From a bacterium (GTDB taxonomy: Bacteria > Patescibacteriota > Saccharimonadia > Saccharimonadales > Saccharimonadaceae): DNA of 64,000 nt. Each line of letters starts with the position of its first letter. Position 1 is the stretch's first letter. Location of the stretch: assembly GCA_043724245.1 (NCBI GenBank), contig JAYSMZ010000018.1:626-64625 (forward strand), read 5' to 3'. The notes beneath the pieces are model-generated. The model was not told the DNA's origin. It searched no databases and was given only the letters and a program-made list of their open reading frames with translations. Both the position numbers and the translations under genes were made by a program. This document shows positions 24,949-62,822 of this stretch, in pieces.

Positions 24949-24985
24949 TTTGGCTATTAGAATTTAGAAGATAGCCAATAGCAAT

Positions 24986-25015
24986 AAATAGCAGCGCAAA
25001 GCTGCTTATTTGTTT
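24986..25015 (+). terminator. Possible intrinsic terminator after rpmH
   Basis: Stem GCAGC(24991-24995)/GCTGC(25001-25005), extendable by A/T pairs with one bulge, followed by ttatttgttt. Confidence 0.4.
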
Positions 25016-25037
25016 GGATTAACCTTAACTGGCAAAT

Positions 25038-25105
25038 GGAATATAGCTATTGGCTATTGGGACTTGTTTAATTAGCCATCTTCCAATAGCCAACTTCCAC
25101 ATTCC
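25038..25105. repeat. GGCTATTGG-family palindromic intergenic element, locus A (plus a satellite at 24951-24982)
   Basis: Left arm GGAATATAGCTATTGGCTATTGG (25038-25060). Right arm CCAATAGCCAACTTCCACATTCC (25083-25105). The arms share an inverted TTGGCTATTGG core plus GGAAT/ATTCC. Upstream satellite: TGGCTATTAGAAT...ATAGCCAATAGC at 24951-24982. Confidence 0.8.
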
Positions 25106-25126
25106 AAATACGATATACTTAATCAT

Positions 25127-25510
25127 ATGATTCCTTATACTAATCGCTTTCACGGTCACAGTAGTCTGAACTATGTTTACAAAAATGGCCAAGCTGTTCG
25201 TAGCCACTTGGTTACGATTAAATATGTATCAAACAAGCATCGTGAAGCGTCCAGGATAGCGGTAGTTATTAGCAAAAAAACCTTAAAAAGTGCCGTTCGA
25301 CGAAATCGTATTCGCCGGCGAGTATATGAACAGGTCAGGTTGCGACTACCAAACCTAAAAGCAGTTTACGATATCGTATTTATTGTTACTTCTGGTGAGT
25401 TTATTAATTTATCTTTTGAAGAAATGTCACAGCAAATTGATCAGCTTTTTGACGGGGCCAGGATAATTAACAAGAAAAAAATCGTAAAAACAGCGCCAAA
25501 AAATCCATAA
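25127..25510 (+). CDS. rnpA: Ribonuclease P protein component
   Basis: 127 aa, basic, with the motif KKTLKSAVRRNRIRRRVYE. Synteny rpmH-rnpA-yidC. Confidence 0.85.
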   Translation: MIPYTNRFHGHSSLNYVYKNGQAVRSHLVTIKYVSNKHREASRIAVVISKKTLKSAVRRNRIRRRVYEQVRLRLPNLKAVYDIVFIVTSGEFINLSFEEMSQQIDQLFDGARIINKKKIVKTAPKNP

Positions 25511-25562
25511 ACTGCTATAATATATACATAAATACTAGTGCCGGTTTGGAGTTATTAGGCCT

Positions 25563-26522
25563 GTGGATATTTTTCAAATTATTGTTGTTCAGCCAATATT
25601 TAACCTGTTGATCGCTCTTTACAGTATCATCCCAGGCGGTGATTTTGGCGTTGCCGTAATTATATTTACGGTTATTGTTCGGTTCGCAATGTGGCCACTG
25701 GTTAAAAAACAGCTTCACCAAACCAAAGCCATGCAAAAGATGCAACCCGAACTTGCCAGAATAAAACGTGAAACCAAGGGTAACAAACAACTTGAAGGCG
25801 TGCGCATGATGGAACTTTACAAAAAACACGATATCAGCCCGTTCCGTTCAATCGGTATTTTGTTAATCCAACTCCCGATTTTTATTGCGCTATATCAAGT
25901 GATTCAGATTTTTACCCTGCATCGTGACCAAATCGGTAAATATACCTATGAATTTCTTAAATTTTTGGAGCCTGTCAAGGATTTGATTGCTCATCCAAAT
26001 CATTTTAACGAAACATCGCTTGGTTTTATCAGCTTAACCGGACAAGCCCTTAGAACCAACCCGTTTGCAATTAACATCGCCTTAATGATTTTGGCAATCG
26101 GCGCGGCTTATACGCAGTACGTTATGGCTAGACAAATTACACCTAAAACTAAAAGCAAAAAACGTCTGCGAGACATTATGACCGAAGCGTCATCGGGTAA
26201 AGAAACCGACAAAAGCGAGATGAACTCAATCATGATGGGATCTATGACTAAATTCTTGCCAGTCATGATGTTCCTGATTATTATTAACCTTCCGGGGGCA
26301 ATTGCTCTTTATTACACCGTTCAAAACATTGTTGCGGTTATTCAACAGGGGAAAGTGTTAAAAGAAGACACAAGTGAAATGATTGAGATAGCCGACGAAG
26401 CACCCGTGACTGCACACAAAAAGGCAACCGCCAAAGCGCGCGCCAAAGACGCTAGGCAAGCAACAATAATTCGTATCAAAGCCAAAGACCAGGCAGGTTG
26501 GCAAGGTAAAAAGAAAGGTTAA
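25563..26522 (+). CDS. yidC: Membrane protein insertase YidC/Oxa1 family
   Basis: 319 aa, short Gram-positive-type YidC. Motif IIFTVIVRFAMWPLVKKQLHQTKAMQKMQPELARIK, multiple TM helices and a basic C-terminal tail. Confidence 0.85.
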   Translation: MDIFQIIVVQPIFNLLIALYSIIPGGDFGVAVIIFTVIVRFAMWPLVKKQLHQTKAMQKMQPELARIKRETKGNKQLEGVRMMELYKKHDISPFRSIGILLIQLPIFIALYQVIQIFTLHRDQIGKYTYEFLKFLEPVKDLIAHPNHFNETSLGFISLTGQALRTNPFAINIALMILAIGAAYTQYVMARQITPKTKSKKRLRDIMTEASSGKETDKSEMNSIMMGSMTKFLPVMMFLIIINLPGAIALYYTVQNIVAVIQQGKVLKEDTSEMIEIADEAPVTAHKKATAKARAKDARQATIIRIKAKDQAGWQGKKKG

Positions 26523-26525
26523 CCC

Positions 26526-26987
26526 ATGGACAAAGAAGAATCAGTTCAATTCGCACAAAAATATCTTGAAGATTTACTGTCTTTTTTCGGGGCCAATATT
26601 ACAGTTTCATCAACCTGCGACGAAGACGTTATCGAACTATCTGTGCCGTCAAACGAGCTAAACAGCTTGCTGATTGGCCGAAATGCCGAGACACTACGAA
26701 GCTTGCAATACATTGTATCGACGGTCCTGCGCAGCAAGGACGCGCTTCTAACGCGTGTTAATGTCGACATTGCCGACTATAAAAAGCAACGAGCCGACCG
26801 TATTGCTGTACAGGCACGTGAATGGATAGAAGAAGTCAAAAAGACCGGGGATTCGAAAGTTGTTAATATGAACGCCGCCGATAGGCGCATCGTCCACAAA
26901 GTTGCCAGCGAATATGGCGATATCCAGACATTTTCCGAAGGCGAGGGTTTTGATCGTAAACTTACAATTGCCCAAGCCGGCTCATAA
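26526..26987 (+). CDS. jag: Jag/KhpB-like RNA-binding protein (KH + R3H)
   Basis: 153 aa. The C-terminal R3H-like region is MNAADRRIVHKVASEYGDIQTFSEGEG. The gene sits in the canonical position after yidC. Confidence 0.8.
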   Translation: MDKEESVQFAQKYLEDLLSFFGANITVSSTCDEDVIELSVPSNELNSLLIGRNAETLRSLQYIVSTVLRSKDALLTRVNVDIADYKKQRADRIAVQAREWIEEVKKTGDSKVVNMNAADRRIVHKVASEYGDIQTFSEGEGFDRKLTIAQAGS

Positions 26988-26990
26988 TTA

Positions 26991-27066
26991 GCAAATGGAA
27001 TGTGGCTATTGGCTATTAGCGCGGATTAAATTCGCTATCTTCCATATTCCAATAGCTATTAGCTAG
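26991..27066. repeat. GGCTATTGG-family intergenic element, locus B
   Basis: gcaaatggaatgtggctattggctattagc...cttccatattccaatagctattagc. The first ~30 nt are nearly identical to 25032-25060. The element fills the whole jag/GT4 convergent spacer. Confidence 0.8.
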
Positions 27067-27067
27067 C

Positions 27068-28174
27068 CTACGGTCTGATATAGTTCCGTATCGCGTCGAT
27101 ATACACACTATAGGTTTGTTTTGCCATGCGTGCCCACGAATATTTTGCGATTTGTTTGTAGCCTTCTTTAATCAACTTTTTTCGCAAGTTTTCATCTGAT
27201 AGCACCTCATCAATTGCCTTTGCCATATCATCCGTGTCTAACGGATTAAAATAATGGGCTGCGTCATCATAAACCTCTGGCAAACAGGTGGCATTACTGC
27301 TGACCACGGGCGCTCCATACCCCATTGCCTCCAGTCCAGGCAACCCGAACCCTTCCAATAGCGAAGGGAATACGTACGCGGCTGTGTTTTGGTACAGCCA
27401 ATCACGCTGCGGGTTTGGCAAGAAATCGGTAAAATGAATGTTTTTGTAACCTTTGCTTTCAAAATATTTTTTGTTTATCAAGGCACTGGCGTTGATTTTA
27501 CCAACTAATATCAGCCCCAAATCCGGGTATTTTTTTAATAATTTCTGATGAGCTTCACCTAACCTTTTTATATTTTTATAATCACTTTGCTGGCCGACGT
27601 ACATAAGGTATTTCTTGAATGGGGTTTGGTAGGCTACAACTTCACTTATGAAAATATCAGCAGACTCGGGAGTTACGGCAATTTTATCCGGCGATAACTT
27701 TTTGTCAAACTTTAACAGCTCGTTTTTGGTGAATTTACTTGGCGTCAATATAAATCGGCTGGTTTTTAAAACGCGCCTGAAAACAAACTTGCCAATAAAC
27801 TGTTTAAAGTGAAAAATTAACCAGTTTTTATCGGAATTATAAGTTTTTAATAGCGACAAATCGTGAAAAGTAGTTACGTGGGCACCTTTATACAAAACCG
27901 GTTGCTGGGGCATGCAAAAATGCACTAAATCGGGGTGCAGTTCGTCCAAATAAAACTTGAACCCGATCTGTTCAGACAGCGAATAATTATTGTATTTAAT
28001 TGTCCTGACATGAAAATTATCGTTTGTTGGTTTCCAATAATCTTTGTCTTTTTCGGGTACCAAAACCGTGTAATAAGTGACCGAGTCGATTTTTTGCAGA
28101 TAATGCAACAGTCGCTCGACATACATTCCAGTCGAAGTATTGATAATTCTGGCATCGATAGCAATATGACGCAT
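27068..28174 (-). CDS. Glycosyltransferase family 4 (GT-B)
   Basis: 368 aa. C-terminal EX7E-type motif: FPSLLEGFGLPGLEAMGYGAPVVSSNATCLPEV. Confidence 0.8.
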   Translation of the reverse strand: MRHIAIDARIINTSTGMYVERLLHYLQKIDSVTYYTVLVPEKDKDYWKPTNDNFHVRTIKYNNYSLSEQIGFKFYLDELHPDLVHFCMPQQPVLYKGAHVTTFHDLSLLKTYNSDKNWLIFHFKQFIGKFVFRRVLKTSRFILTPSKFTKNELLKFDKKLSPDKIAVTPESADIFISEVVAYQTPFKKYLMYVGQQSDYKNIKRLGEAHQKLLKKYPDLGLILVGKINASALINKKYFESKGYKNIHFTDFLPNPQRDWLYQNTAAYVFPSLLEGFGLPGLEAMGYGAPVVSSNATCLPEVYDDAAHYFNPLDTDDMAKAIDEVLSDENLRKKLIKEGYKQIAKYSWARMAKQTYSVYIDAIRNYIRP

Positions 28175-28204
28175 TAATTCAAGTATATCATCAGGTGTGA
28201 TTAT

Positions 28205-28804
28205 CTATCGTTGAACAATTGATGATTTTACAGTATCCACTAGCCTTGCAGGGTGAATAACCCAAATGCCGTGACCCGCCGAAAGATGAGTTTCAGGGTT
28301 GTCGGTAGGCTTTTTTGTATAAACCTCTACATGGCCTGCTGGCTCATGGTTAACAACGCCAATCGATCCATCATAAGCTTGTGCGATAGAAAAATTAGTT
28401 TCGGATCCTTGCAAATCCAGGTTAAACGGACCTCGTTGGCCTGACCGTACATCAAGTTCCCCTTGTTTTCTGCTGAAATCCAATATTTCTGGGAACTCGT
28501 TGGGAATATGTCTGGCAAAACATGTGACGTCGACATATTCTGGTCGTCTCCAGCCTCTTGAATCTATTCTGGCCATCGCATCGATGATATAATACATTTC
28601 TTTTTCGGTTTTTATTACCGTCATTAGGTCCTGATAGATACCATCAAGTGTGTTCGAGCAACACGCCATACTTTGATCGCCGTGTGTCACGGGGGGGATT
28701 TCATGGATGACTTCGGGTTCAAGAAGTGTCGGTACATAAAGTCTTTTTAGTTCCGCGACCAACCCCTCGGTAGGTGATAATTCAACCTTTTGCTCAGGTG
28801 ACAT
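28205..28804 (-). CDS. Hypothetical protein (orphan)
   Basis: 199-aa ORF with no motif I recognise. It is divergent from the RHH/RelE pair. Confidence 0.5.
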   Translation of the reverse strand: MSPEQKVELSPTEGLVAELKRLYVPTLLEPEVIHEIPPVTHGDQSMACCSNTLDGIYQDLMTVIKTEKEMYYIIDAMARIDSRGWRRPEYVDVTCFARHIPNEFPEILDFSRKQGELDVRSGQRGPFNLDLQGSETNFSIAQAYDGSIGVVNHEPAGHVEVYTKKPTDNPETHLSAGHGIWVIHPARLVDTVKSSIVQR

Positions 28805-28943
28805 AGTGAAACTCCCTTTTATAAAACGTTACTAATATAATAGCATTTTTTATACACACTGTCGATTTGATGTTTACAGCTATACATATATGCATATTGA
28901 TGCATTGATGTAAGTATGTTATTATGTAAATAAGGAGAAAATT

Positions 28944-29162
28944 ATGCGTACAACAATCACAATTAACGACACATTATTCCGAGCCCTCAAGATGCGTGCC
29001 TTCGAAGCCGATGAAAGCATCTCTAAACTCGTCGAGGATGCTGTTAAATATCAAATTCTAGAGGATTTGGAAGATATCGAAGACGCCAAGGCCCGTGAAA
29101 ACGAGCCAAGCTATTCATTTGACAATCTTGTCGCTAGTTTCAAGGCCGAAGGTTTGCTTTAA
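28944..29162 (+). CDS. Ribbon-helix-helix-type antitoxin
   Basis: 72 aa. N-terminal MRTTITINDTLFRALKMRA (RHH-like beta-strand and helix) with an acidic C-terminus. AAGGAG RBS at 28932-28937. It lies directly upstream of the RelE-like toxin. Confidence 0.65.
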   Translation: MRTTITINDTLFRALKMRAFEADESISKLVEDAVKYQILEDLEDIEDAKARENEPSYSFDNLVASFKAEGLL

Positions 29163-29166
29163 TTAT

Positions 29167-29415
29167 ATGTACAAAAAATCAGTTGAAAAAGACCTGCGGA
29201 AGTTACCAAAATCTGTTTTAAAGCAGATTGTTAGAAAAATCCAAACACTTGCTAAAAACCCACTACAGAACAGCTCGGTCAAACTAAGGGGCGCCACAAA
29301 CCTGTATAGAATCAGGCATACGGATTATCGCATTATTTACAGCTTTAACAATGACGAGCTAGTAATACTAGTAATCAAAATTGCTCATCGTAAAGATGTT
29401 TATAAAGGTTTTTAA
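29167..29415 (+). CDS. RelE/ParE-family type II toxin
   Basis: 82 aa from ATG 29167: MYKKSVEKDLRKLPKSVLKQIVRKIQTLAKNPL...LYRIRHTDYRIIYSFNNDELVILVIKIAHRKDVY. This is the classic RelE/ParE pattern. The track ORF start at 29095 lies within the antitoxin gene. Confidence 0.75.
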   Translation: MYKKSVEKDLRKLPKSVLKQIVRKIQTLAKNPLQNSSVKLRGATNLYRIRHTDYRIIYSFNNDELVILVIKIAHRKDVYKGF

Positions 29416-29960
29416 GATTTATTTATAAAAACGAATTTTTTGTACATTAGATAATTCCAAGTCAATGATGCGGCAGTAGCCAGGCCCTTGCCAAGGAATA
29501 AGACCAAATACTTCGCTTTAAACCACGAACCCAGCGCTTCCCCTAGCCATTTTACAGGTTGACTATCGGTAAACCACGGACCCAATAGCATATTTACACC
29601 TTCGATGATAATCGGCTGGATAACCCACATGCCGATAACTGTAATAATCACAAAATAGATCATATGTCGTTTTGTAATGTTTTTGGCTTTGAATGTGAAC
29701 GATTTGTTGGTGAAAAAGCTAAAGACCATCGCGACCGAGGTCGAAAAGAAGTTACTGGGAAGATTTGGAAAACCGCCAAATACAACCAACGCGAACAAGA
29801 TTCCCCAATCAATCGCCGTTGCGGTCAGGCCGACCATCACAAAACGGATTTGTTCAGCGAATCTTTTTATCAGATTTTTCAATGTTGCTTTCCTCGATGT
29901 AATAAAGTGGGCGCTGTTTGACCTCTTTGAATATTCGTCCGATATATTCACCAATAACAC
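29412..29960 (-). CDS. GtrA-family membrane protein
   Basis: Four TM helices, with an N-terminal RF.MVGLTATAIDWGILF motif typical of GtrA. The real start is probably the internal TTG at 29882 or later, because the track start overlaps the GT2 gene by 107 nt. Confidence 0.65.
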   Translation of the reverse strand: MLLVNISDEYSKRSNSAHFITSRKATLKNLIKRFAEQIRFVMVGLTATAIDWGILFALVVFGGFPNLPSNFFSTSVAMVFSFFTNKSFTFKAKNITKRHMIYFVIITVIGMWVIQPIIIEGVNMLLGPWFTDSQPVKWLGEALGSWFKAKYLVLFLGKGLATAASLTWNYLMYKKFVFINKS

Positions 29961-30813
29961 CTAACGACAACAGCTGTACGCCCCCCAGGAACAGCACGAT
30001 TGCCATCAATGATGGGTATCCGGCGACGGAATCACCAAATAATGCGGCTTTGAAAACTACGACAATCAGGTAAATAAAGGCGACGGCGGATACAATTACG
30101 CCAAAAAATGAAGAAATCCTTAGAGGTGTTGTCGAAAACGATGTAATACCGTCAATTGCCAGATTTATCAGTTTTCGCCAGTTTTGTTTGACTTCGCCGG
30201 CAGCACGCGGATCGCGGTCATAAGTAATTTCCTTTTTCTTGAAACCAACCCAGCTGAACATTCCTTTGGTATAGCGCTCCGATTCGCGAAGCTGTTTTAA
30301 GGCCTCGACGCAGCGTTTATCCAGCAGGCGGAAATCACCGGTGTTTCGAGGGATTTTAATCAGTTGACCCTGGGTCATTTTGTTTAACAACCAGTAATAG
30401 GTATTAGCAGTCACTATTTTTATCCAAGTTTCACCTTCTCGACTGCTACGTTTGGCGTAAACGTCATCATATCCCTCTTCCCAGAATTTAATCATTTTCG
30501 GAATCAGTTCCGGCGGATCCTGCAAATCGGCATCAATAATCACCGTTGCATCACCTATCACATGGTCCAAACCGGCAATCATGCCGATTTCTTTGCCAAA
30601 ATTGCGCGACAAACTGACGTATTTAACGCGGTCGTCTTTTTTGGCGTAATCTTTGATTATTTCCAAGGTTTTATCGTGGCTACCATCATCGGCGAACAAA
30701 AACTCGAATTCATACGATTTATTATCGTTGGCTAGTTTACCAATGCGTTGATAAAGGTGGCCCAAAACTTCTTGCTCGTTATAAGCGGGGATAAGAATAC
30801 TAATTTTTTTCAT
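29854..30813 (-). CDS. GT2 polyprenyl-phosphate hexosyltransferase (GtrB/DPM1-like)
   Basis: 319 aa. Motifs ISILIPAYNEQ, FADDGSHDKT, IIDADLQDPPE and two C-terminal TM helices. Confidence 0.85.
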   Translation of the reverse strand: MKKISILIPAYNEQEVLGHLYQRIGKLANDNKSYEFEFLFADDGSHDKTLEIIKDYAKKDDRVKYVSLSRNFGKEIGMIAGLDHVIGDATVIIDADLQDPPELIPKMIKFWEEGYDDVYAKRSSREGETWIKIVTANTYYWLLNKMTQGQLIKIPRNTGDFRLLDKRCVEALKQLRESERYTKGMFSWVGFKKKEITYDRDPRAAGEVKQNWRKLINLAIDGITSFSTTPLRISSFFGVIVSAVAFIYLIVVVFKAALFGDSVAGYPSLMAIVLFLGGVQLLSLGVIGEYIGRIFKEVKQRPLYYIEESNIEKSDKKIR

Positions 30814-30944
30814 CAGTACCAGTATAACGCAAGTTGGTAGGTAGTAGGTAGTAGTTGGTGTTTGGGAATTAGAGACAATACAATCAGGCTTATTAATTGA
30901 TGATAAAGTTATGTGTTTATGCTTAGCTCTGATATATTGATATT

Positions 30945-31550
30945 ATGACCCCAAAACAAATCAAGGTTTATCTTGCTAAATACACAGACAAGAAATCTAG
31001 GACAATCGTTATTGTTGATTTTGGGAACGTTGAAAAATGGAAAAAAAGTTTGGGTTGGCTTGTAGGGATACAAGAACTAGCGACACTTGCAAAGAACTTC
31101 TCTTCTGGTCAAAAATTCCTAAGACGATTTTATTACGGGATAGATTATGGTAGTTCAGAGTCCAGTAATGCACCTACGCCGTGGTCTGACGGCATCCTAA
31201 AGCGTGCTGACGCTAATGGTATGCATGTTATAAAAAAGAGGGTAAAGTACATTCATTCAACAGACAATCGTAAAGGGTTTGAGAAAAAATGCGACCTTGA
31301 CGTTGAGATGACAGTCGATTTGATTCGCGAGCGCGATAATTACGATACAATAGTTTTGTTTTCTGGGGATGGTGACTTAGCTTATGCTATAAACTATCTG
31401 CATCAGGAGTATGGGAAAAGCTGCATTGTTTTTGGTGCACGCGATCACGTCGGTAGGGAAATATTTGATGCAAAAACGTCAGGTTCAGTGACGGATATAT
31501 TTTTTGCCGAAGATTTTGAGTATAGATTGAACAAAGATCGTAAAAAGTAG
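30945..31550 (+). CDS. NYN/LabA-like (PIN-fold) domain protein
   Basis: 201 aa. Motifs VIVDFGNVEKW ... DLDVEMTVDLI ... IVLFSGDGDLAYAINYL, matching the acidic residue pattern of the NYN domain. Confidence 0.7.
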   Translation: MTPKQIKVYLAKYTDKKSRTIVIVDFGNVEKWKKSLGWLVGIQELATLAKNFSSGQKFLRRFYYGIDYGSSESSNAPTPWSDGILKRADANGMHVIKKRVKYIHSTDNRKGFEKKCDLDVEMTVDLIRERDNYDTIVLFSGDGDLAYAINYLHQEYGKSCIVFGARDHVGREIFDAKTSGSVTDIFFAEDFEYRLNKDRKK

Positions 31551-31560
31551 TGATAATTCA

Positions 31561-33062: not shown

Positions 33063-33076
33063 AATGCTCCTTTGTC

Positions 33077-35710: not shown

Positions 35711-35721
35711 TATTCCGGTTC

Positions 35722-54031: not shown

Positions 54032-54087
54032 GTGCTTTCATATATTCACAATTGTTCAATAATTAATTTACATAAGGATTTGGTCTA

Positions 54088-56310
54088 GTGACTAAAACAA
54101 AATTCGATTTAAGAATCATATATTCTTTCTTGAAAAAAAATTGGTTCATATTATTTACAATTTTAACTTATATGTTTTTTACCTTTTATTATTTGGGACC
54201 GTCAGTTACCTCGTGCGCTAATACCGTGTATGGTTTTGGCGACAACACTGCCGGACCGATATGGAGGGCTACTTTACCGGAGGACCAGGGTTTAATCGGT
54301 TCATACACAAACATGACAAATGCTCCTTTTGGTGACAATCTGAATAGCCCTATCGGCTATAGTCTTATTGGCCAAACCGCTCTTATCAGGACTTCGATGG
54401 CGGTAGCCGGTCCTGTGTGTGGTTATAACATAATAAATATGATTGGCTTCTTATTGAGCGCCTTAGCGATGTTTGGGTTTATTTTTGCCGTTACTCGTAA
54501 AAGATGGATTGCACTTCTTGCTGGTTATGCGGTGTCATTTACACCGTATTATCAAATGAAAATTGGAGGGCATCCGAGTTACGGATATCAAGCAATTTTT
54601 ATAGGAATCATATGGTTGTTTTATAGATTACTAAAATTAAAAAGGAAAAGAGACGTTGCTTACTTAAGCATCGTGTTCGCAATTGCAGTTTATTTTGACC
54701 CATATTTTTCCCTCTTAGCAGCAATAACCTTAGGATCTTTAGGTTTGGCCTGGCTAATAGTGTATAGAAAAATCATTACTATTAACTTTTGGAAGTTAAA
54801 TAATAAAATAAAAAATATAGAGACGATAAAACAATTCAGGCTCTTGTTGCTTTCATTATTATTAATAGTACTCCTTGTGCTGCCCCTCGCTTTTGTGTTC
54901 TCGTCACAGGCAGGACAGATTAACTCAAACGTAGCTTCCTCGCGTGGCAATGTCTTATTTGAAGCGAAGGCTTGTAGTAATTGGCCTCATGAATATTTAG
55001 TACCATTTGTTTTAAACCCAGTTTTTGAAAAAGTGATTGGGAAAGACCGCTATATTGGGACAATTAATAATTTAAGAGATAATTTTTCGTGCGGGATTGG
55101 CGAAGATTCTGTAGGATTAAGTTTGACGTTAGTTTTTATTACTACAGTAGGGTTTATCATATTTCTTTGGGAAATGCTAAATAAGAGAAGACTGGGTCTT
55201 GATAAGAGGTTTGGCTATAACCCTAAAATGGTTGTTGTTGGAATGATTTCTTTGGCAGTTATTTCTATAGCAATCGGCTTCCCGCCACTTATCTATCATA
55301 ATATTATTCCCACCCCGTCGTTCATAATTCTTTCAATAACTTCAACCTGGAGAACACTAGCTAGGGTCTATGTGTTAGTAAATATTTCCCTGGTCGTATT
55401 ATCTTCAATTGTAATAGCATATTTTTATCAGCATTTTGATCTGAAAAAATATTATCGTTTAATTGCAATTCTGTTTGCTCTAATTTGCCTAGGGGTAATG
55501 GTTGAGTATCAAGCATTTATGCCATTTAGCGGAAATAGTTTGAGTACGTTTAATTACAACAAAGATGTTCCTCCAGCTTATACGTGGTTGAAAAATCAAA
55601 ATGGTATAAAGACTTTAGCAGAATATCCTCTAGAGAGGAGTGGGGGTGAATCGAATGCAACAGCCTACTATTTGACAATGCAAGTAGTTCATAAGAAAAA
55701 AGTATTTAACAGTGCTTTGTCATATAGTCCTCAAGAGACATTAAAATCTGGGTTAAAAAACCTATCAGACCCTCAAACCCTACCAGTTTTAAGGGCTTTA
55801 GGGGTGGACGCTGTAGTGATCCACGGATATGATAAAAAACAGATCGAGAAAATTCCTAATGCAAATGTAATATACACAGCAACGAAACCACAATTTAATA
55901 TTTCAGAATTTACTCCAACTGTGAAGAATGACGATGTTGCGGTTTTGAGTCTAATTAATGTGACCCCATCAACTTTTGTTATTGAACTTGGGGAAGGATT
56001 TGCCCGCAATACGACCATAATTAACTCAGTATTTGATTGGCAATATGAAGCCATGCAGGGGTCTATTTTTAATATTCAATCCAATCGAGGGAAAATGTTA
56101 AATACTGCAACGGACGTTTGTTTTGATATAAAAATGTCCGTACCGACTGAAACAGCATTTTTGGACCCAAAAGTTGACGGAATCTCCAGTGGAACCAACC
56201 CTATAAATGGTGTATACAAAACAATAAAACTAAATGTAAAAAGCACCATAGAATTACATAATAGCACTGGTCATAATATGAGGGTAACAAAAATAGGGTG
56301 CAACCCCTAG
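54088..56310 (+). CDS. Large polytopic membrane protein with C-terminal soluble domain (GT-C-fold glycosyltransferase / YfhO-like candidate)
   Basis: 740 aa with a GTG start. About 11-13 TM helices in the first ~480 aa, then a ~260-aa extracytoplasmic domain. It is located among polyprenyl-phosphate sugar synthase genes. Confidence 0.5.
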   Translation: MTKTKFDLRIIYSFLKKNWFILFTILTYMFFTFYYLGPSVTSCANTVYGFGDNTAGPIWRATLPEDQGLIGSYTNMTNAPFGDNLNSPIGYSLIGQTALIRTSMAVAGPVCGYNIINMIGFLLSALAMFGFIFAVTRKRWIALLAGYAVSFTPYYQMKIGGHPSYGYQAIFIGIIWLFYRLLKLKRKRDVAYLSIVFAIAVYFDPYFSLLAAITLGSLGLAWLIVYRKIITINFWKLNNKIKNIETIKQFRLLLLSLLLIVLLVLPLAFVFSSQAGQINSNVASSRGNVLFEAKACSNWPHEYLVPFVLNPVFEKVIGKDRYIGTINNLRDNFSCGIGEDSVGLSLTLVFITTVGFIIFLWEMLNKRRLGLDKRFGYNPKMVVVGMISLAVISIAIGFPPLIYHNIIPTPSFIILSITSTWRTLARVYVLVNISLVVLSSIVIAYFYQHFDLKKYYRLIAILFALICLGVMVEYQAFMPFSGNSLSTFNYNKDVPPAYTWLKNQNGIKTLAEYPLERSGGESNATAYYLTMQVVHKKKVFNSALSYSPQETLKSGLKNLSDPQTLPVLRALGVDAVVIHGYDKKQIEKIPNANVIYTATKPQFNISEFTPTVKNDDVAVLSLINVTPSTFVIELGEGFARNTTIINSVFDWQYEAMQGSIFNIQSNRGKMLNTATDVCFDIKMSVPTETAFLDPKVDGISSGTNPINGVYKTIKLNVKSTIELHNSTGHNMRVTKIGCNP

Positions 56311-56386
56311 CTTAACTTCGCTTCCCATTATAAAATCAAAAATAATTTTTCGAGGCTATGTGAAGCACATGGGTTATAATAAAACA

Positions 56387-57430
56387 ATGATTACAGTTAT
56401 TATTGCCGGTGGGTCCGGGACCCGCCTATGGCCACTATCAACCCCTAAATACCCAAAACATTTATTAAAATTAACAGGCAAACGCACGTTGTTGCAGACG
56501 GCATATGACCGAGCATCAAAAATTAGCGAAACAATATATGTCGTTACCGAAGCTGGTCATTCGGATTTGGTCCGCGCTCAACTGCCAGAATTACCTGAAA
56601 GTGCATTTTTAATCGAACCTGGTCGACGCGGTACTGCCCATTGCATATTGTTTGCGTTGGATGTTATCGGAAGATATCACGACCATGACGAGCCGATTGC
56701 TTTTATTCATTCTGACCATCATATCCGCGATGTCGGCGGATTTACACGTTCGTTTTCGACAGCAGCAAAGGTATCAAGCGCTGAAAATCAGGTTACTTTA
56801 ATTGGCATCGAGCCAACCTTTCCATCAACCGGATTCGGGTATATTGAACGCAACGGTGTCATAAACGCCGGCAACGGGGTTTTTAATGTCAAATCTTTCA
56901 AGGAAAAACCAGACTTTGAAAAAGCAAAGCGGTATATGGAATCAGGCAATTATTTGTGGAACTGCGGATATTTTGTTGGTTCAGTCAATACTTTTCTGGA
57001 TGAGATGAAACTATCTGCTCCGGACTTACAGAAACATTTTGAAAAGCTTGAATCAATCGCAAAAATTGGGAGTAAGGAATATAACGATGTATATCTGGCG
57101 TTTGACAGCCAAGTTATTGATATTGCACTGATTGAAAAAGCCAAAAGCCTAGCCGTTGTTGCTGCCAGCTTTGACTGGATGGATATCGGGTCATTCAAGG
57201 ATTTACACGATGTCGTACCTCAGGACGAAAAAGGTAATTACTTTTATGGCGAAAACATTCACGCCATCGATGTCGAAAACGTATTTGTCAGAAACGAAGA
57301 GAGCGAAAAACCGATCGCTGTTATTGGCCTGGACAATGTTGTTGTCGTAAATACGCCAGACGGCATATTAATATCTAGGAAGGATGTCAGTCATCGGACG
57401 GGGGAAGTGGCTAAAAAATTACATCAGTAA
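56387..57430 (+). CDS. manC: Mannose-1-phosphate guanylyltransferase (no fused PMI cupin)
   Basis: MITVIIAGGSGTRLWPLSTPKYPKHLL is the canonical NTP-transferase N-terminus. The track start is 56360. ATG 56387 gives the canonical N-terminus and sits 6 nt after TATAAT (56375-56380). Confidence 0.85.
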   Translation: MITVIIAGGSGTRLWPLSTPKYPKHLLKLTGKRTLLQTAYDRASKISETIYVVTEAGHSDLVRAQLPELPESAFLIEPGRRGTAHCILFALDVIGRYHDHDEPIAFIHSDHHIRDVGGFTRSFSTAAKVSSAENQVTLIGIEPTFPSTGFGYIERNGVINAGNGVFNVKSFKEKPDFEKAKRYMESGNYLWNCGYFVGSVNTFLDEMKLSAPDLQKHFEKLESIAKIGSKEYNDVYLAFDSQVIDIALIEKAKSLAVVAASFDWMDIGSFKDLHDVVPQDEKGNYFYGENIHAIDVENVFVRNEESEKPIAVIGLDNVVVVNTPDGILISRKDVSHRTGEVAKKLHQ

Positions 57431-57431
57431 T

Positions 57432-57447
57432 TTCGCCGTACGGCGAA
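57432..57447. terminator. Perfect 16-nt palindrome immediately after manC stop (possible terminator hairpin)
   Basis: TTCGCC-GTAC-GGCGAA. It has no T-run, so it is weak as an intrinsic terminator. Confidence 0.35.
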
Positions 57448-57479
57448 TAGAATATAGCTGTTAGCTATTGGAATATGGC
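57448..57479. repeat. GGCTATTGG-family intergenic element, locus C
   Basis: tagaatatagctgttagctattggaatatggc shares the GAATATAGCT and GCTATTGGAATATGG words with loci A, B and D. Confidence 0.7.
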
Positions 57480-57592
57480 ATTGAGCGGAATGAACCCATG
57501 GGAGTGTATTTTAGAGTATATTAAAACTAGCTTAAAAAAAGGTTAATGACTTACTAATTCGTGGTATAATCATATTAGAGTAGTGAGGGAAT

Positions 57593-58438
57593 ATGACAAA
57601 TCAATCAATCACAATCTTTGGTGATTCACAAATACGCCGTCATTGGGATGCAGATAATGAGTTTTGGTATTTTTCCGTTGTTGACGTTATTTCGGTTCTA
57701 ACGAATAGTAATAATCCTCAGGTATACTGGCGTGTTCTGAAAAAACGACTAATTGACGAAGGCTCAAATGAAACCGTTACAAAATGTAACGGTTTGAAGA
57801 TGCTGGCTGAAGACGGTAAAATGCGCATAACCGATGTCGCCGATACCGAAACTATGCTTCGTCTAATTCAATCAATTCCTTCGCCAAATGCTGAACCATT
57901 CAAATTATGGCTGGCTCGTGTCGGATACGAACGATTGGAAGAAACGGCAGATCCCGAATTGGCGATAAGTCGCGCACTTAAAACATACCTACAAAAGGGC
58001 TATAGTAGAGAATGGATAAACCAACGACTTAAAAGTATCGAAATCCGCAAAGATCTGACTGACGAATGGGATAATCGAGGTGTCAAAGAGGGTCTGGAAT
58101 ATGCTATTTTAACAAATGAGATTACCAAAGCGTGGGCGGGGCTTACGACAAAAGAGTACAAGCAACTAAAGGGATTAAAAAAAGAAAATCTGCGTGATAA
58201 TATGACTAATCTGGAATTAGTCTTGAATATGCTGGCCGAAACGGCAACGACAGAAATATCTAAAAAAGAAAAACCTGATAATATGCCTGCAAACAAAAAT
58301 GTGGCGAAACGCGGCGGATCAGTCGCCGGCAAAGCCCGCACAGAAACTGAGAAAGAATTAGGAAGAAGTGTAATATCAGACAAAAATTATTTACAATCGA
58401 AACGACCATTAAAAAAATTTGATAAATCAAATCTTTGA
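57593..58438 (+). CDS. BRO-N domain protein (DinD/antirepressor-like)
   Basis: 281 aa. The N-terminus FGDSQIRRHWDADNEFWYFSVVDVISVLTNSNNP...YWRVLKKRL matches the Bro-N pattern. GAGGGA RBS. An upstream TATAAT lies at 57565-57570. Confidence 0.6.
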   Translation: MTNQSITIFGDSQIRRHWDADNEFWYFSVVDVISVLTNSNNPQVYWRVLKKRLIDEGSNETVTKCNGLKMLAEDGKMRITDVADTETMLRLIQSIPSPNAEPFKLWLARVGYERLEETADPELAISRALKTYLQKGYSREWINQRLKSIEIRKDLTDEWDNRGVKEGLEYAILTNEITKAWAGLTTKEYKQLKGLKKENLRDNMTNLELVLNMLAETATTEISKKEKPDNMPANKNVAKRGGSVAGKARTETEKELGRSVISDKNYLQSKRPLKKFDKSNL

Positions 58439-58489
58439 TTGATAATATTACAGGGTAATAGGAAATACGGAAAAACATAAACGAAATGA

Positions 58490-58518
58490 TTGAAATTAGT
58501 AAGGTTTTATAGTATAAT
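58490..58518 (+). promoter_or_regulatory. Near-consensus sigma70-type promoter for the vbhA/fic module
   Basis: TTGAAA (58490-58495), 17 nt, TATAAT (58513-58518). The first ATG (58522) is too close to be transcribed, which favours ATG 58528 on a leaderless mRNA. Confidence 0.5.
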
Positions 58519-58527
58519 AGTATGAGC

Positions 58528-58731
58528 ATGAAAAAACAAAACACCGCAAACAACGGTCGCGAGCAGGCCACTAGGGCAGCTATAGGATCTATCCGCTGCG
58601 AAGGGCTGCGACCGAGTGCCAGCACCAGTAAACATTTGCGAAATTATTCATCAGGTAAGATATCGGCCAGCCAGTTGCACGAAAGTGTAATGGGCGAAGT
58701 CGAGTCTATTTTAGCGCGTTCCAACAGGTAG
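58528..58731 (+). CDS. VbhA-like antitoxin of Fic toxin
   Basis: About 67 aa. It contains SIRCEG, matching the inhibitory (S/T)xxxE(G/N) motif of class I Fic antitoxins. It lies immediately upstream of the fic gene. The track start is 58522. Confidence 0.6.
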   Translation: MKKQNTANNGREQATRAAIGSIRCEGLRPSASTSKHLRNYSSGKISASQLHESVMGEVESILARSNR

Positions 58732-58737
58732 CAGATT

Positions 58738-59340
58738 ATGGCTTACCAGCTAGAAAAAGACCCGTATATCGATTCAGTAACGGGGATATTAAGGAATCTA
58801 TTCGGGGCCAAAGATTTAAAAACTTTAGAACAAATCGAAGCTGAAATAACGGTTGCAGTCATTGCAACATTAAACGATCACCCAATACCAGGTAGTTTTG
58901 ATCTGGAACATCTGCAAGCCATTCATAAACGTCTGTTTGCCAGTATTTATGATTGGGCCGGAAAACTACGTACTGTTGAAATGGCCAAAGACAATACACG
59001 ATTTGCACCAATTGAGTATTTGGTGCAGGCGGCCGAAAATTTATTTGATGAACTAAAGTCGGAAAAATATTTAGATAACTTGGACGATAAAAAATATATA
59101 GCCAGATTTGCTCATTATTATTCCGAAGTTAATATATTACACCCGTTTCGCGAAGGTAATGGACGAGCTGAACGCGTGTTTTTTTCACTGTTAGCTGGGC
59201 GCAGTGGACGTCATGTTGCATGGGACGAGTTGGACCCCGGCCAGGCGATCCAGGCTTCAATAAAAGCGTATAATGGTGACGAGGGACAATTGATTAAACT
59301 TCTGTCCCCTCTTTTTTCAAAAGTTAATAGTCGAGGATAA
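58738..59340 (+). CDS. fic: Fic-domain protein (AMPylase-type toxin)
   Basis: 200 aa. The Fic motif HPFREGNGRAER is intact, matching HxFx(D/E)GNGRxxR. Confidence 0.85.
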   Translation: MAYQLEKDPYIDSVTGILRNLFGAKDLKTLEQIEAEITVAVIATLNDHPIPGSFDLEHLQAIHKRLFASIYDWAGKLRTVEMAKDNTRFAPIEYLVQAAENLFDELKSEKYLDNLDDKKYIARFAHYYSEVNILHPFREGNGRAERVFFSLLAGRSGRHVAWDELDPGQAIQASIKAYNGDEGQLIKLLSPLFSKVNSRG

Positions 59341-59342
59341 TT

Positions 59343-61178
59343 ATGTGCGGAATAGTCGGATACGTTGGTGAAAAATCAGCAAAGAACTATTTAATCAGCG
59401 GACTGCATCGTTTGGAATACCGCGGTTATGATTCCGCTGGGATTGTTACAATTAGCGCGGATAACAAGGCAACCATGATACGAGCAAAGGGAAAGGTTGC
59501 AAAATTAGAAGAACTGACAAATTCAATTCGCCGTACGGCGAAATTTTCGACCGATAAAATTGGGATTGGTCATACGCGGTGGGCGACACACGGCGAACCA
59601 TCTGAAAGAAATGCTCATCCGCACAAAGCCGGCGATATTTATTTGGTTCATAATGGCATTATCGAAAATTACAAAGAATTAAAAGCCACGTTAATAAAAC
59701 ATAAATTTATTACAGATACTGATACCGAAGTTTTAGCGGCACTGATTAATTCGCTTTACGACCAAAATACTACTTTGGCGGATGCTGTGAACCAAGCACT
59801 AAAACTGGTTGTTGGTACATACGGTATTGCAGTTATATCGGTTCGTAATCCGGAAGAAATCGTCGTTGCACGATCGGGTAGCCCGCTAATTATCGGTGTT
59901 GGCGACAATGTAACATATATAGCCAGTGACGCATCTGCCTTAATCGGGTTTACCGATAAGGCTATTTATTTAAATGACGGCGAAATGGCGATCTGCAGTG
60001 GGGGCGGTGTAGAATTACGCGACATGTCAGCACAACCGATTTCATGTAAAGTCGAAACCATTGAAACGGACATGCAAGCAATCCAAAAACAAGGCTACGA
60101 CCACTTTTTGCTAAAAGAAATTTGCGAGCAGCCATCGACTCTGCAATCGACCCTAAGCGGACGAATTAATGTAAAAGATAAAGTCGCGAATTTGGGTGGA
60201 TTAAACCTAAGTCCCGACGAGCTGCGAAAAATCGAGCACATTGTTATTATCGGTTGCGGAACGGCCTATTACGCCGGACTGCTGGGGTTATATTATTTGG
60301 AACAATTAGTCGATGGGCTGACAATTGACGTGGTCGCGGCATCAGAATTTCGTTACAGGTCATTCCATTTGCCCAAAAATACAGTTGCGCTAGTTATCTC
60401 ACAGTCTGGCGAGACGGCTGATACATTGGCTTGCCTGCGCGAAATAAAACGGCGGGGTATTAAAACGTTGGGAATCGTTAATGCTGTCGGATCAACTATT
60501 GCCCGCGAAGTTGACGGCGGCGTTTACGTACATGCCGGTCCGGAAATATCTGTGGCGTCGACCAAGGCGTTTACATCACAAATCGCGACAATTATTATGT
60601 TTGGCATTCAGTTGGCCCAAGCCAAAGGCGCTGATAAAAAAGAAGTCTCAAAGTATATCCAGGAACTTTCAAAACTGCCTGATGAAATTGAAAAAATTGT
60701 AAGTAAAGACAAAGATAAAATTGCTAGTATTGCAAAGCGCTATGCAATGTACGAACATGCGCTATATTTCGGACGTGATACTCTTTATCCGGTTGCAATG
60801 GAGGGTGCGCTTAAACTTAAAGAAATCTCGTACATTCAAGCCGAAGGATATGCATCGGGTGAGTTAAAACACGGACCGATTGCATTAATAGACGATTCGT
60901 TTTTTGAAGTAGCACTGCTAATTGATAATTGGCTGTTTGATAAAAGCCTTAGTACGTTAGAAGAGGTAAATGCCAGGGGCGGACATATTTTTGTTATAAC
61001 AAACAGCAAAAAATCGATAAAGTCCGAAGAAATTATTCGAGTTAATACTCAACTGGATATTCTGGCACCAATCTTAATAAATGTTGTACAACAATTATTT
61101 GCATATTATATAGCTGTGGCACGCGGCAACGATGTTGATCAACCGCGCAATTTGGCTAAGAGCGTCACTGTTGAGTGA
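59343..61178 (+). CDS. glmS: Glutamine--fructose-6-phosphate aminotransferase
   Basis: 611 aa. N-terminal MCGIVGY with the catalytic Cys2, HTRWATHG, two SIS domains, and C-terminal LAKSVTVE. Confidence 0.95.
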   Translation: MCGIVGYVGEKSAKNYLISGLHRLEYRGYDSAGIVTISADNKATMIRAKGKVAKLEELTNSIRRTAKFSTDKIGIGHTRWATHGEPSERNAHPHKAGDIYLVHNGIIENYKELKATLIKHKFITDTDTEVLAALINSLYDQNTTLADAVNQALKLVVGTYGIAVISVRNPEEIVVARSGSPLIIGVGDNVTYIASDASALIGFTDKAIYLNDGEMAICSGGGVELRDMSAQPISCKVETIETDMQAIQKQGYDHFLLKEICEQPSTLQSTLSGRINVKDKVANLGGLNLSPDELRKIEHIVIIGCGTAYYAGLLGLYYLEQLVDGLTIDVVAASEFRYRSFHLPKNTVALVISQSGETADTLACLREIKRRGIKTLGIVNAVGSTIAREVDGGVYVHAGPEISVASTKAFTSQIATIIMFGIQLAQAKGADKKEVSKYIQELSKLPDEIEKIVSKDKDKIASIAKRYAMYEHALYFGRDTLYPVAMEGALKLKEISYIQAEGYASGELKHGPIALIDDSFFEVALLIDNWLFDKSLSTLEEVNARGGHIFVITNSKKSIKSEEIIRVNTQLDILAPILINVVQQLFAYYIAVARGNDVDQPRNLAKSVTVE

Positions 61179-61180
61179 CG

Positions 61181-61265
61181 CTTGGCTATTAGAATATAGA
61201 ATCTGGAATATAGAGATTGGAATATGGAAGGTGGCTTGTGGCTATTGGCCAAATTCTAATAGCAA
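61181..61265. repeat. GGCTATTGG-family palindromic intergenic element, locus D
   Basis: cttGGCTATTAGAATatagaatctGGAATATagagattGGAATATGGAAGGTGGCTtgtGGCTATTGGccaaATTCTAATAGC. An 11-bp inverted repeat GCTATTAGAAT/ATTCTAATAGC lies at the ends. The element fills the glmS/GT4 convergent spacer. Confidence 0.8.
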
Positions 61266-61281
61266 AATGCCAAACGCCAGA

Positions 61282-62436
61282 CTAAGAGTTGTCTTTGACA
61301 ATCTTGGTTATCTTGGTGATGAATAAACTTTTATCGAAGCGTTTGGCTTTGCGACGGAGTGTGCCTGGTAAAAATTCAATTTGCTGAGCGCGCCGAATGG
61401 CATCAACGACAGATTCAACTGATTGTTTATCGAAAAGTACGCCACTTTCGCCGTCCTCAACAATATCAAGTGCTCCGCCTTTGCTGTATGCAATTACCGG
61501 TGCACCGGCTGCCAATGCTTCAACCTGAACAATGCCAAAATCTTCTTCGGCTGGGAAAATGTAGCCACGGGCACTATTTAACGCATTCGTTACGGCGTCA
61601 TCGGACGCATCACCAAATCGGTCAGTGTAAAATTTAACTGTCGGTCCAGCCATATCGACGAGCCGCTGATGCTCGCTACCATTACCGTAAACATACAGCG
61701 GAACTGATAGTTTCGTGGCGGCCGCTACTGCTAAATCAATTCGTTTATATGGAACTTGGCGACCCAGTGCAACATAATGGTCACCACGAGTCCTGTCGGG
61801 TTCAAATCTGTCGACATCAACCGGCGGGTGAATGACTGTAGAAAATTTGTTGTAATACTTTTTTATCCTTTTTTGAGTTTCGGTGCTGTTTGCTATAAAA
61901 ACATCGATTTTTTGGGCTGCCTTGTAATCAGCTTTTTTTAATCGTGGGACCATCAATGGCATTGCTAAACGGACGACCCAGTTTAATCGGCCAAAGCCAG
62001 GATCACGACGGTATTCATCGTAATGACTCCAGTAATACCGGATTGGCGTGTGACAGTAACAGATGTGAGTTTGGTCTTCGCGTGTCTTTTGAACTTGTTT
62101 TGATTCGGCGCTGGCACTGCTGAGGATAATATCAAACCGCGACAAATCTAGTTTATTAAATGCGTTGACGCGAAGCATTGGAAAAAATTTGTGAAGTTTG
62201 CGCAGTGGCCCGGGTAGTTTTTGCAAATAAGTTGTTCGAACATCCAATTTTTTAAAAGCTGGCATTTTTTCAGGCGTATAGGTTGATGTGTAAATTGGTG
62301 CATCCGGAAAGGCATCATGCATAGCCAAAACGACATTTTCGGCGCCGCCCATATTAGTCAACCAATCGTGCACAATCACCACGCGTGGTGATTGTTTGGC
62401 TATTGGAATTTGGCTATTGGAATTTGGCGTGCTCAT
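61282..62436 (-). CDS. Glycosyltransferase family 4
   Basis: 384 aa. Motifs VVIVHDWLTNMGGAENVV and FPAEEDFGIVQVEALAAGAPVIAYSKGGALDIV. The first ~14 codons are encoded by repeat locus E. Confidence 0.8.
   Translation of the reverse strand: MSTPNSNSQIPIAKQSPRVVIVHDWLTNMGGAENVVLAMHDAFPDAPIYTSTYTPEKMPAFKKLDVRTTYLQKLPGPLRKLHKFFPMLRVNAFNKLDLSRFDIILSSASAESKQVQKTREDQTHICYCHTPIRYYWSHYDEYRRDPGFGRLNWVVRLAMPLMVPRLKKADYKAAQKIDVFIANSTETQKRIKKYYNKFSTVIHPPVDVDRFEPDRTRGDHYVALGRQVPYKRIDLAVAAATKLSVPLYVYGNGSEHQRLVDMAGPTVKFYTDRFGDASDDAVTNALNSARGYIFPAEEDFGIVQVEALAAGAPVIAYSKGGALDIVEDGESGVLFDKQSVESVVDAIRRAQQIEFLPGTLRRKAKRFDKSLFITKITKIVKDNS
62395..62427. repeat. GGCTATTGG-family element, locus E: 14-bp tandem (2 full units + partial)
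   Basis: tttggctattggaa (62395-62408), tttggctattggaa (62409-62422), tttgg. Confidence 0.85.
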
Positions 62437-62798
62437 TTAGATAATCCTGACTTGAAGGCATTTATTAGTTTTTGACAACTAATGCTATGAGTTATTAGTA
62501 AATCTAAATCTGATTTTTGTAAATACCCAAGCTTTTCTGATAAATACAGAAAGTTTTTGACCTCGAGTAGCGATCCGTACACCATTGTATAAAAGCGGAG
62601 CTTATCCTTTATTGATGAGCGACCGAACCCTTCGGCTATGTTTGCAGATATCGAACTTGCTGCCCGTCGTAATTGGCTTGTTACTGCAAATATTTCTTCT
62701 TTGGGGAAATGTTTTGTTATTTTGTATACTCCGACAGCAAACAGTTGGCTTTCTTGCCAAACCGTTAAGTCTTCAAATGAAGTTATGTTATTTGCCAT
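62433..62798 (-). CDS. Four-helix-bundle protein (23S rRNA intervening-sequence protein family)
   Basis: 121 aa. FEDLTVWQESQLFAVGVYKITKHFPKEEIFAVTSQLRRAASSISANIAEGFGR is the hallmark of the TIGR02436/PF05635 family. ATGA overlap with the downstream GT4. Confidence 0.8.
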   Translation of the reverse strand: MANNITSFEDLTVWQESQLFAVGVYKITKHFPKEEIFAVTSQLRRAASSISANIAEGFGRSSIKDKLRFYTMVYGSLLEVKNFLYLSEKLGYLQKSDLDLLITHSISCQKLINAFKSGLSK

Positions 62799-62822
62799 AT
62801 TCTAATAGCCACCTTCCAATTG
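62796..62822. repeat. GGCTATTGG-family element, locus F
   Basis: catATTCTAATAGCCACCTTCCAATtgc. Its reverse complement GGAAGGTGGCTATTAGAAT matches words in locus D. It spans the spacer and the start codon of the four-helix-bundle gene. Confidence 0.75.

Follow-up and report, generated by a model that had tools for sequence, protein, structure and literature searches.

The 64,000-nt window analysed here, the whole stretch taken from contig JAYSMZ010000018.1 of a member of the Saccharimonadaceae, carries a dispersed family of short foldback repeats built from phased heptamers, and one of these repeats encloses a gene coding for a 23S rRNA intervening-sequence protein (IVP, also called S23p). These loci probably represent a Saccharibacteria-wide selfish family akin to repetitive extragenic palindromic (REP) sequences, MITEs (miniature inverted-repeat transposable elements) and Rickettsia palindromic elements (RPEs), with IVP as the likely partner protein. 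A first-pass annotation, made by a model from the sequence letters, had described a repeat family at six gene boundaries, termed A to F, and had proposed selfish REP/MITE-like palindromes, protein-binding insulators or terminators, or recombination sites marking cassette boundaries. Of these options the first is now best supported, by near-identical copies at unrelated sites, by the presence or absence of copies at orthologous junctions and by copies lying in frame within genes; the phasing of the heptamers and the enclosed IVP gene had been overlooked.

The repeat unit is a heptamer of the form T-R-G-N4 (e.g., TGGCTAT, TGGAATW, TAGAATA or TGGAAGG) in strict 7-nt phase. About five such units form one arm of ~35 nt, and two convergent arms, whose T-R-G units lie on the top strand left of a centre of ~15-105 nt and on the bottom strand right of it, form one foldback element. 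Three dialects occur in Saccharibacteria, namely GGCTA/GGAAT (dialect 1), GGTAG/AGTAG, and GGGAAA (dialect 3, with the unit TGGGAAA), and the arm consensus of dialect 1 is position-specific: T(G/A)GCTAT TGGAATW TGGCTAT T(G/A)GAATW TGGC. The alternation of units in dialect 1, with its period of 14 nt, made it invisible to a plain lag-7 autocorrelation detector, which was superseded by a generic detector requiring at least four in-phase T-R-G heptamers. With the latter, 11 arrays were found in the window as compared to 0.48 in shuffled sequence, comprising A1, both arms each of A2, B and D, the arms C, E and F, and a further array at 30835-30876. Among 171 unique dialect-1 arrays, 118 have five heptamers, 32 have four and 16 have six; since the collection was partly fetched with an exact pattern of four heptamers, its length and conservation statistics are biased, which concerns the lower side of this peak, while the drop from five to six is unbiased. 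Long arrays at L140 (13019-13174), L156 (7012-7146) and L161 (8516-8595), three of the loci fetched for comparison, reach up to 11-12 perfect TAGTAGG or TGGGAAA units, some of them with different dialects on the two arms, which shows microsatellite-like expansion past the usual five units. The assumption of one dialect per genome had to be rejected, as all three share genomes and the window itself holds a mixed array.

That the repeats are an artefact of composition or chance has a negligible probability. It is true that GGAATAT, one of the constituent words originally named, is by itself scarcely enriched (20 occurrences against 12.5 expected), and that a 16-mer scan of a genome collection, in which only loci with several clustered words are informative, returned mainly single chance matches. 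However, the word GCTATTRG has 19 exact matches in the window against 3.79 expected (sd 1.84), a count that none of 100 shuffles reached; GGCTATTRGAAT with up to two mismatches occurs 24 times against 13.1 expected, as in one of 100 shuffles. Together with the 11 arrays and a density about tenfold above that of other bacteria (1.7 elements per 10 kb in Saccharibacterial loci fetched via their proteins, where the copies lacking an open reading frame (ORF) are dispersed, versus 0.18 arrays per 10 kb in 783 kb from unrelated bacteria), this refutes a chance origin. The repeat family is thus real, and the first-pass statement that all copies sit at the six boundaries is true for 16 of the 19 GCTATTRG matches, the other three (24456, 27355 and 29582) being isolated and located inside ORFs.

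At locus A, the five phased heptamers of A1 (24951..24985, plus strand; TGGCTAT TAGAATT TAGAAGA TAGCCAA TAGCAAT) directly follow the rpmH stop codon and fold as a small hairpin. They are separated by a canonical terminator hairpin (24990-25006), which the terminator scan called as distinct from the arrays, from the inverted repeat A2, whose left arm (25030..25064, plus strand) reads TGGCAAA TGGAATA TAGCTAT TGGCTAT TGGGACT and whose right arm (25072..25106, minus strand), likewise of five heptamers, ends 20 nt before the rnpA ATG. In agreement with the palindromy claimed for A, the repeat finder aligned these arms as inverted repeats of 35 nt with 71% complementarity. Both arms of B also have five heptamers, the left one (26989..27023, plus strand) beginning 2 nt past the jag stop codon and the right one (27031..27065, minus strand) abutting the stop codon of a convergent gene for a GT4 glycosyltransferase. 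The near identity of about 30 nt noticed between A and B was recovered as well (30 nt at 87% and 60 nt at 78% identity), and the same 30-nt family extends to C, D and E with members that are 77-87% identical. C is a single arm of five heptamers downstream of manC (57448..57482, plus strand). At D, which has a 7/14-nt period according to Tandem Repeats Finder, a long left array of 11 phased heptamers (61183..61266, plus strand) follows the glmS stop codon, and a right arm of five heptamers (61238..61279, minus strand) ends at the stop codon of a convergent GT4 gene. A seventh array of six heptamers in mixed dialect (30835..30876, plus strand; TGGTAGG TAGTAGG TAGTAGT TGGTGTT TGGGAAT TAGAGAC) was revealed by the detector in a divergent gap upstream of an NYN-domain gene starting at 30945; it had been missed before, and E and F, formerly counted as separate loci, are two arms of one element. 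The gene names given for the boundaries (L34/rpmH, RNase P protein, YidC, Jag, GT4, ManC-like, BRO, Fic, GlmS and GT4) were correct.

Arms F (62791..62825, minus strand) and E (62397..62431, plus strand) lie inverted around an ORF of 121 amino acids on the minus strand (62433..62798). Its product matches PF05635 ('23S rRNA-intervening sequence protein', E = 2e-33) and TIGR02436 ('four helix bundle protein', E = 4e-31), and its nearest solved structure is XCC0516 of Xanthomonas campestris (PDB 2gsc). The S23p/IVP protein has been known since the 1990s from rRNA intervening sequences and is still without an assigned function. F takes up all of the gap between the preceding Bac_transf stop codon and the IVP start, and the IVP ATG lies within its last heptamer (TAGAATA TGGCAAA); E starts directly after the IVP stop codon. 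The perfect 14-nt tandem reported for E was found again at 62395-62428 (Tandem Repeats Finder, 2.4 copies, 100% identity). On the minus strand, which codes for the next GT4 protein, E is open in frame and reads MSTPNSNSQIPIA... (PNSNSQIPIA) before VVIVHDWL, with which GT4 typically starts; for this reason gene callers assign GT4 an N-terminal extension, producing an ATGA stop/start overlap that recurs in L126 and L128. E is intergenic, as had been assumed, only if GT4 starts at an internal GTG near 62383, and otherwise is the sole candidate in the window for an in-frame, RPE-like copy.

The slot Bac_transf-IVP-GT4(-glmS) is kept across species with IVPs that are 69-100% identical. Every complete IVP gene with 69% identity or more in the fetched loci has word-detected arrays on either side (about 30 loci, or roughly 17 distinct cassettes after removal of duplicate retrievals), and among the convergent pairs inspected in about 830 kb, all but two wider ones (~1.9 and ~2.5 kb apart), IVP is the only gene found enclosed. 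The gene is under strong purifying selection, with proportions of nonsynonymous differences (pN) of 0.06-0.23 versus saturated synonymous ones (pS) of 0.67-0.92 and a dN/dS of about 0.1 or lower, while the non-coding arms are 72-97% identical in the protein-fetched loci, which give unbiased figures. In L194, GT4 is 83% identical to that of the window, IVP only 54%, and the arms are TGGGAAA arrays; L208 has two IVP genes in different dialects, one in the slot with GGTAG/CCACCTA arms and a second outside it, beside a LexA-like gene, with canonical arms. The IVP gene and its arms are hence exchanged together as a unit in a fixed slot.

This exchange is also the sole, indirect hint in favour of the proposal that the repeats are recombination sites at cassette boundaries. 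In its stronger form, in which the arrays would be attC-like or other site-specific recombination sites bounding exchangeable cassettes, it could further draw on the copies that border the variable BRO-Fic insertion and on the position of D at a variable junction. However, most copies enclose nothing, many lie inside ORFs, and the annotated parts of the window (all but 41-51 kb) contain no integrase or recombinase gene, neither near the copies nor elsewhere, so that this explanation is very improbable.

A selfish family dispersed across the Saccharibacteria is in line with the distribution of the copies. Homologues of both IVP and RnpA are labelled Candidatus Saccharibacteria or Saccharimonadales, and the 16-mer scan yielded clustered copies in at least seven Saccharibacteria metagenome-assembled genomes. 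A stricter two-unit pattern retrieved 65 metagenome loci, among them four contigs from a single sample, ~0.88 Mb in total, that bear at least 16 copies, and found no copy in viral contigs. The DNA sequencing runs holding the window sequence are exclusively sediment metagenomes, and Rfam gave no family match anywhere in the window.

Comparison of orthologous junctions, which had been suggested as a check on the first-pass annotation, shows that A, B and D are variably occupied among relatives. L204, whose RnpA is 79% identical, has no element at either the rpmH/rnpA or the jag/GT4 junction, where only a terminator and a -10 box are found and jag and GT4 overlap, respectively. At the same two junctions, L205 and L207 carry GGTAG-dialect hairpins or long one-sided arrays, and L206 combines a canonical element (B) with an array of TGGGAAA (A). 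Element D is wholly absent from the orthologous junction in L126, L128, L136 and L193, present in L194, and replaced by another dialect in L183.

In addition, copies are found in frame within conserved genes, namely those coding for LepA, MnmA, TsaD, an Fpg-like glycosylase, a THUMP-type methyltransferase, PrmC, TopA and RmlD, without disruption of the flanking catalytic motifs; some RmlD orthologues lack the insert. Inside ORFs the right arm always reads PNSNSQIPIA, which is the only open frame through two 14-nt units, and the left arm (A)IGIWNME.G. The inserted 30 nt are 93-100% identical between species in a set that was fetched by exact repeat pattern and is hence biased, as compared to only 37-50% identity at the flanking third codon positions. 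Since the insert is identical at the same site in several diverged lineages, constraint, homogenisation or repeated targeted insertion would be needed to account for it.

Several of the hairpins are predicted to be stable. That of A2 has a predicted energy of -24.2 kcal/mol (z = -3.8 against shuffles), D gives z = -2.6 and -4.6, and A1 together with the canonical terminator z = -4.0, whereas B folds weakly and on its minus strand no better than shuffles. For the IVP transcript, a closing stem of ~30 bp between F and E is predicted in which the start codon is buried (z = -4.1). A selected function at the RNA level, with the arms pairing in transcripts as RNase III sites, 3'-end stabilisers or terminators and IVP as a mere passenger of the loop, could appeal to these stabilities, to the location of most window copies at gene 3' ends and to the cleavage of the Coxiella intervening-sequence stem by RNase III (PMC4990558). 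However, the arms are not kept complementary: in hairpins, the likeness between an element's own arms is 0.703 against 0.696 for arms of other elements (p = 0.48), in IVP cassettes the respective values are 0.799 and 0.798, and there is neither compensatory change nor other arm-to-arm covariation. As own arms are no more alike than foreign ones, the conserved feature is the arm sequence and not the pairing, and the inverted arrangement may entail the hairpin potential as a side effect. Moreover, the arms of L226 are poorly complementary, some arms stand alone (C, 30835 and the half-elements found in ORFs), the arrays at certain cyanobacterial IVP genes are direct and not inverted (L221), and cleavage within ORFs would destroy essential mRNAs. 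Nor did the terminator scan call any array, the elements having no T-run and the hairpin at 24990-25006 being the only one called, which leaves terminators or insulators without support as the defining property of the family. On balance, selection for RNA pairing seems unlikely.

Conservation of sequence rather than pairing could also be expected if the arrays served a host DNA-binding protein, one unrelated to IVP, as operator or nucleoid-organising sites, forming a regulon or insulators where transcription units end. Phased short repeats are typical of cooperative protein binding, and an arm is often followed closely by a -10 box or a start codon. In-frame copies inside housekeeping ORFs are at odds with this idea, as are the orthologous promoters of L204, which work without arrays, the differing dialects at the same junction in different species, and the fact that the only constant genetic neighbour of the arrays is IVP; it is therefore quite improbable.

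Under the preferred reading, that of a selfish foldback family, the conservation of arm sequence rather than pairing suggests that the arms most likely act as recognition sites for a protein, like transposon ends. The best candidate for this protein is IVP, a reported homopentamer that might bind or maintain the arrays and whose gene lies within them wherever examined. The ORF-less copies could be non-autonomous derivatives of the IVP-bearing form, copies are gained and lost at orthologous junctions and accumulate between the end of one gene and the promoter of the next, and those in essential genes survive when the reading frame is kept. The elements would then be selfish rather than regulatory.

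Several points weigh against this interpretation. IVP has no known catalytic or sequence-specific binding activity. In addition to the sampling bias described above and the co-existence of dialects within one genome, the relatedness of IVPs tracks the arm dialect poorly, proteins that are 73-78% identical carrying different dialects: P0086 (GGTAG arms), for instance, is 78% identical to P0014, whose flanks are uninspected and whose MAGV N-terminus is as in dialect-1 cassettes, and L226 combines a GGTAG-type upstream arm with a canonical downstream arm. A rule by which the IVP clade determines the arm dialect is thus unsupported. No transposase or recombinase linked to the elements was found among the window ORFs scanned, which exclude 41-51 kb, and target-site duplications could not be defined, because the filled and empty sites compared come from too diverged species. 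None of the RNA sequencing runs searched holds the window sequence. Finally, the S23p ORF of Coxiella was argued by the authors describing it not even to be expressed (PMC4990558).

Taken as a whole, the family works like REP/REPIN, MITE or RPE families, and its ORF-bearing copy is built like an intervening sequence (IVS) of the S23p type. With REP/REPIN-RAYT systems it shares dispersed short palindromic doublets that are mostly extragenic and one single-copy gene, inherited vertically, with the repeats inverted on either side of it. Unlike in these systems, the arms are phased heptamers, copies are also found inside ORFs, and the flanked gene codes for a four-helix bundle and not for an IS200-like tyrosine transposase; the window ORFs scanned contain no transposase domain as in RAYT (an IS200/IS605-like Y1 transposase), IVP being the only flanked gene. 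As in MITEs, the elements are shorter than 200 nt, have terminal inverted repeats and many copies, and are polymorphic for presence or absence; unlike in MITEs, no transposase-encoding parent with the same ends was found in ~830 kb, two wider arm pairs aside, or in viral contigs, and no target-site duplication could be shown. RPEs are said, after Ogata and colleagues in 2000, to lie in frame in conserved protein-coding genes and apparently to be translated. The palindromic copies of Saccharibacteria resemble them in being in frame in conserved genes and apparently translated, and differ in their unrelated host lineage and sequences, in their heptamer basis and in their link to a specific gene, none being recognised for RPEs.

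The IVSs of 23S rRNA, as in Coxiella burnetii (S23p) and Leptospira, share with the F+E element the enclosed gene of PF05635, terminal inverted repeats able to form a stem of ~28-30 bp, and tandem heptamers that reach the start codon, with no good Shine-Dalgarno sequence. F+E, however, resides in a protein-coding operon (Bac_transf/GT4), with no rRNA in the window, its ORF is under strong purifying selection whereas that of Coxiella has been described as decaying, and many ORF-less copies are dispersed in Saccharibacteria. The GGGAATC arrays of Xanthomonas, the GGGGAYT arrays of Nostoc and the cyanobacterial STRR sequences (PMC4692102) are likewise intergenic tandem heptamers, many in convergent pairs, and differ in length among relatives. 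Their unit sequence is another one, however, and a G-quadruplex reading does not apply to dialect 1, whose consensus lacks G-tracts, including the G3 runs that dialect 3 (TGGGAAA) has. Tandem and mostly intergenic, too, are the TAACTGA heptamers of Beggiatoaceae (PMC4679880), which often end 1 nt before a start codon much as the IVP-proximal arm of the window does, but are mostly direct and one-sided, with no reported link to S23p. Having neither RAYT nor a transposase parent, not residing in rRNA, and not being G-quadruplex-prone in its main dialect, the family fits none of the known ones fully.

In turn, heptamer arrays at IVP genes are not confined to Saccharibacteria. In the Coxiella IVS, the S23p ORF is preceded by three tandem GACAGAT heptamers and a degenerate one right before the ATG, the number of heptamers differs between strains, and a 28-bp stem formed by the termini is cleaved by RNase III (PMC4990558). 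The S23p gene of X. campestris and X. citri is located between accB and accC with five GGGAATC-type heptamers in inverted orientation on each side, and its GTG start, as taken from the crystal-structure numbering, is inside the second heptamer. X. campestris has GGGAATC arrays at ~186 loci, 70 of which are convergent pairs; they were read as quadruplex-forming by Rehm et al. (2015, PMC4692102), who do not mention S23p; neither does the description of TAACTGA heptamers in Beggiatoaceae (MacGregor 2015, PMC4679880). Among 12 IVP genes on cyanobacterial plasmids, a strong 7-nt period marks one flank or both in 10, and both in eight, with scores that are rare or absent in control windows taken from these loci. 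TCAGGAG arrays extending to the ATG, with CTCCTGA across the stop codon, are seen in Nostoc punctiforme, Aulosira, Scytonema and Trichormus; GTAGGGA/TCCCTAC arrays are found in Nostoc edaphicum and GGGAA/TTCCC arrays in Geminocystis, the arrays of Pseudanabaena are direct rather than inverted, and the 7-nt period score gave nothing clear at the IVP loci of Anabaena 90 and Picosynechococcus. IVP genes lie within conserved same-strand operons, namely cas10/cmr3 and cas6/cas4 (twice) on cyanobacterial plasmids (L210, L221 and L223) and accB/accC in Xanthomonas (L213, L216), a tight placement that mirrors the Bac_transf-IVP-GT4 slot.

It is conceivable, and is proposed here only tentatively, that IVP proteins and dispersed heptamer arrays (those of Saccharibacteria, Xanthomonas GGGAATC, cyanobacterial STRR-like repeats and rRNA IVSs) constitute one cross-phylum two-component system, in which a pentameric ring would recognise about five phased heptamers and would maintain, regulate or spread the arrays, by analogy with RAYT-REPIN systems but with a protein that is not a transposase. 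Xanthomonas S23p is a homopentameric toroid (PMC4990558), and the match of a five-subunit ring to five heptamers is suggestive, though not general: it holds for dialect 1 and Xanthomonas and fails for several arrays of cyanobacteria, whose unit numbers range from 3 to 13. A literature search found no paper tying the S23p/IVP family to heptamer arrays and no report on repeats in Saccharibacteria, which, as its coverage was incomplete, is absence of evidence only.

If the two-component reading were true, it would account at once for a protein family and a class of repeats that are both orphans. The tiny genomes of the candidate phyla radiation, in any case, carry on the order of a hundred probably selfish foldback copies, some of them apparently translated inside essential genes, and these repeats have a constant genetic partner in the S23p/IVP protein. 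The same partnership is seen in Xanthomonas, where GGGAATC was described without the S23p link, and on cyanobacterial plasmids, and may join two features that have long lacked an explanation in bacterial genomes. Should the link be functional, the role of the IVS protein and the nature of tandem heptamers would be one puzzle, testable in a tractable organism.

With regard to other features of the window, C is preceded by a 16-nt GC-rich palindrome, TTCGCCGTACGGCGAA (57432-57447, after manC), a second copy of which lies in frame in glmS (59525-59540), where a 5-residue insertion distinguishes the protein from three orthologues. In L072 (2883-2898) the same palindrome interrupts a heptamer array, and it may represent a second, nested mini-repeat. 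Between manC and glmS, which are adjacent in L136, genes coding for BRO-N and Fic proteins are inserted (57593-59340) that match the PADLOC candidate defence families PDC-S13 (E = 1.5e-133) and PDC-S04 (E = 3e-70).

Upstream of locus A, the divergent gap between dnaA (minus strand) and rpmH (plus strand) at 24556-24810 has no heptamer arrays and is probably the replication origin region. Downstream of A2, a -10-like box (TATACT or TATAAT) is located ~8-12 nt before the rnpA ATG in all five species compared (25108-25129 in the window, and L204-L207); since this conserved box is so near the ATG, a leaderless or near-leaderless rnpA transcript is suggested. Within the glycosyltransferase cluster there is a gene for a ParE-family toxin (29095-29415), upstream of which L204 and L205 carry a small RHH-like gene. 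The first part of the window (1-2650, minus strand) contains five tandem paralogous ORFs of ~102-146 amino acids with 61-76% nucleotide identity. Finally, a type-IV-secretion-like cluster (9082-19647) codes for a PrgI-family protein, a VirB4/TraG-type ATPase and large proteins with VanY, amidase and GDSL domains, and a 32-nt direct repeat with 97% identity (TTATACTATAAGC.GTATGGCGGTATATAAAG) has its first copy (8303-8334) in the upstream intergenic gap and its second (9087-9118) at the start of the PrgI-family gene.

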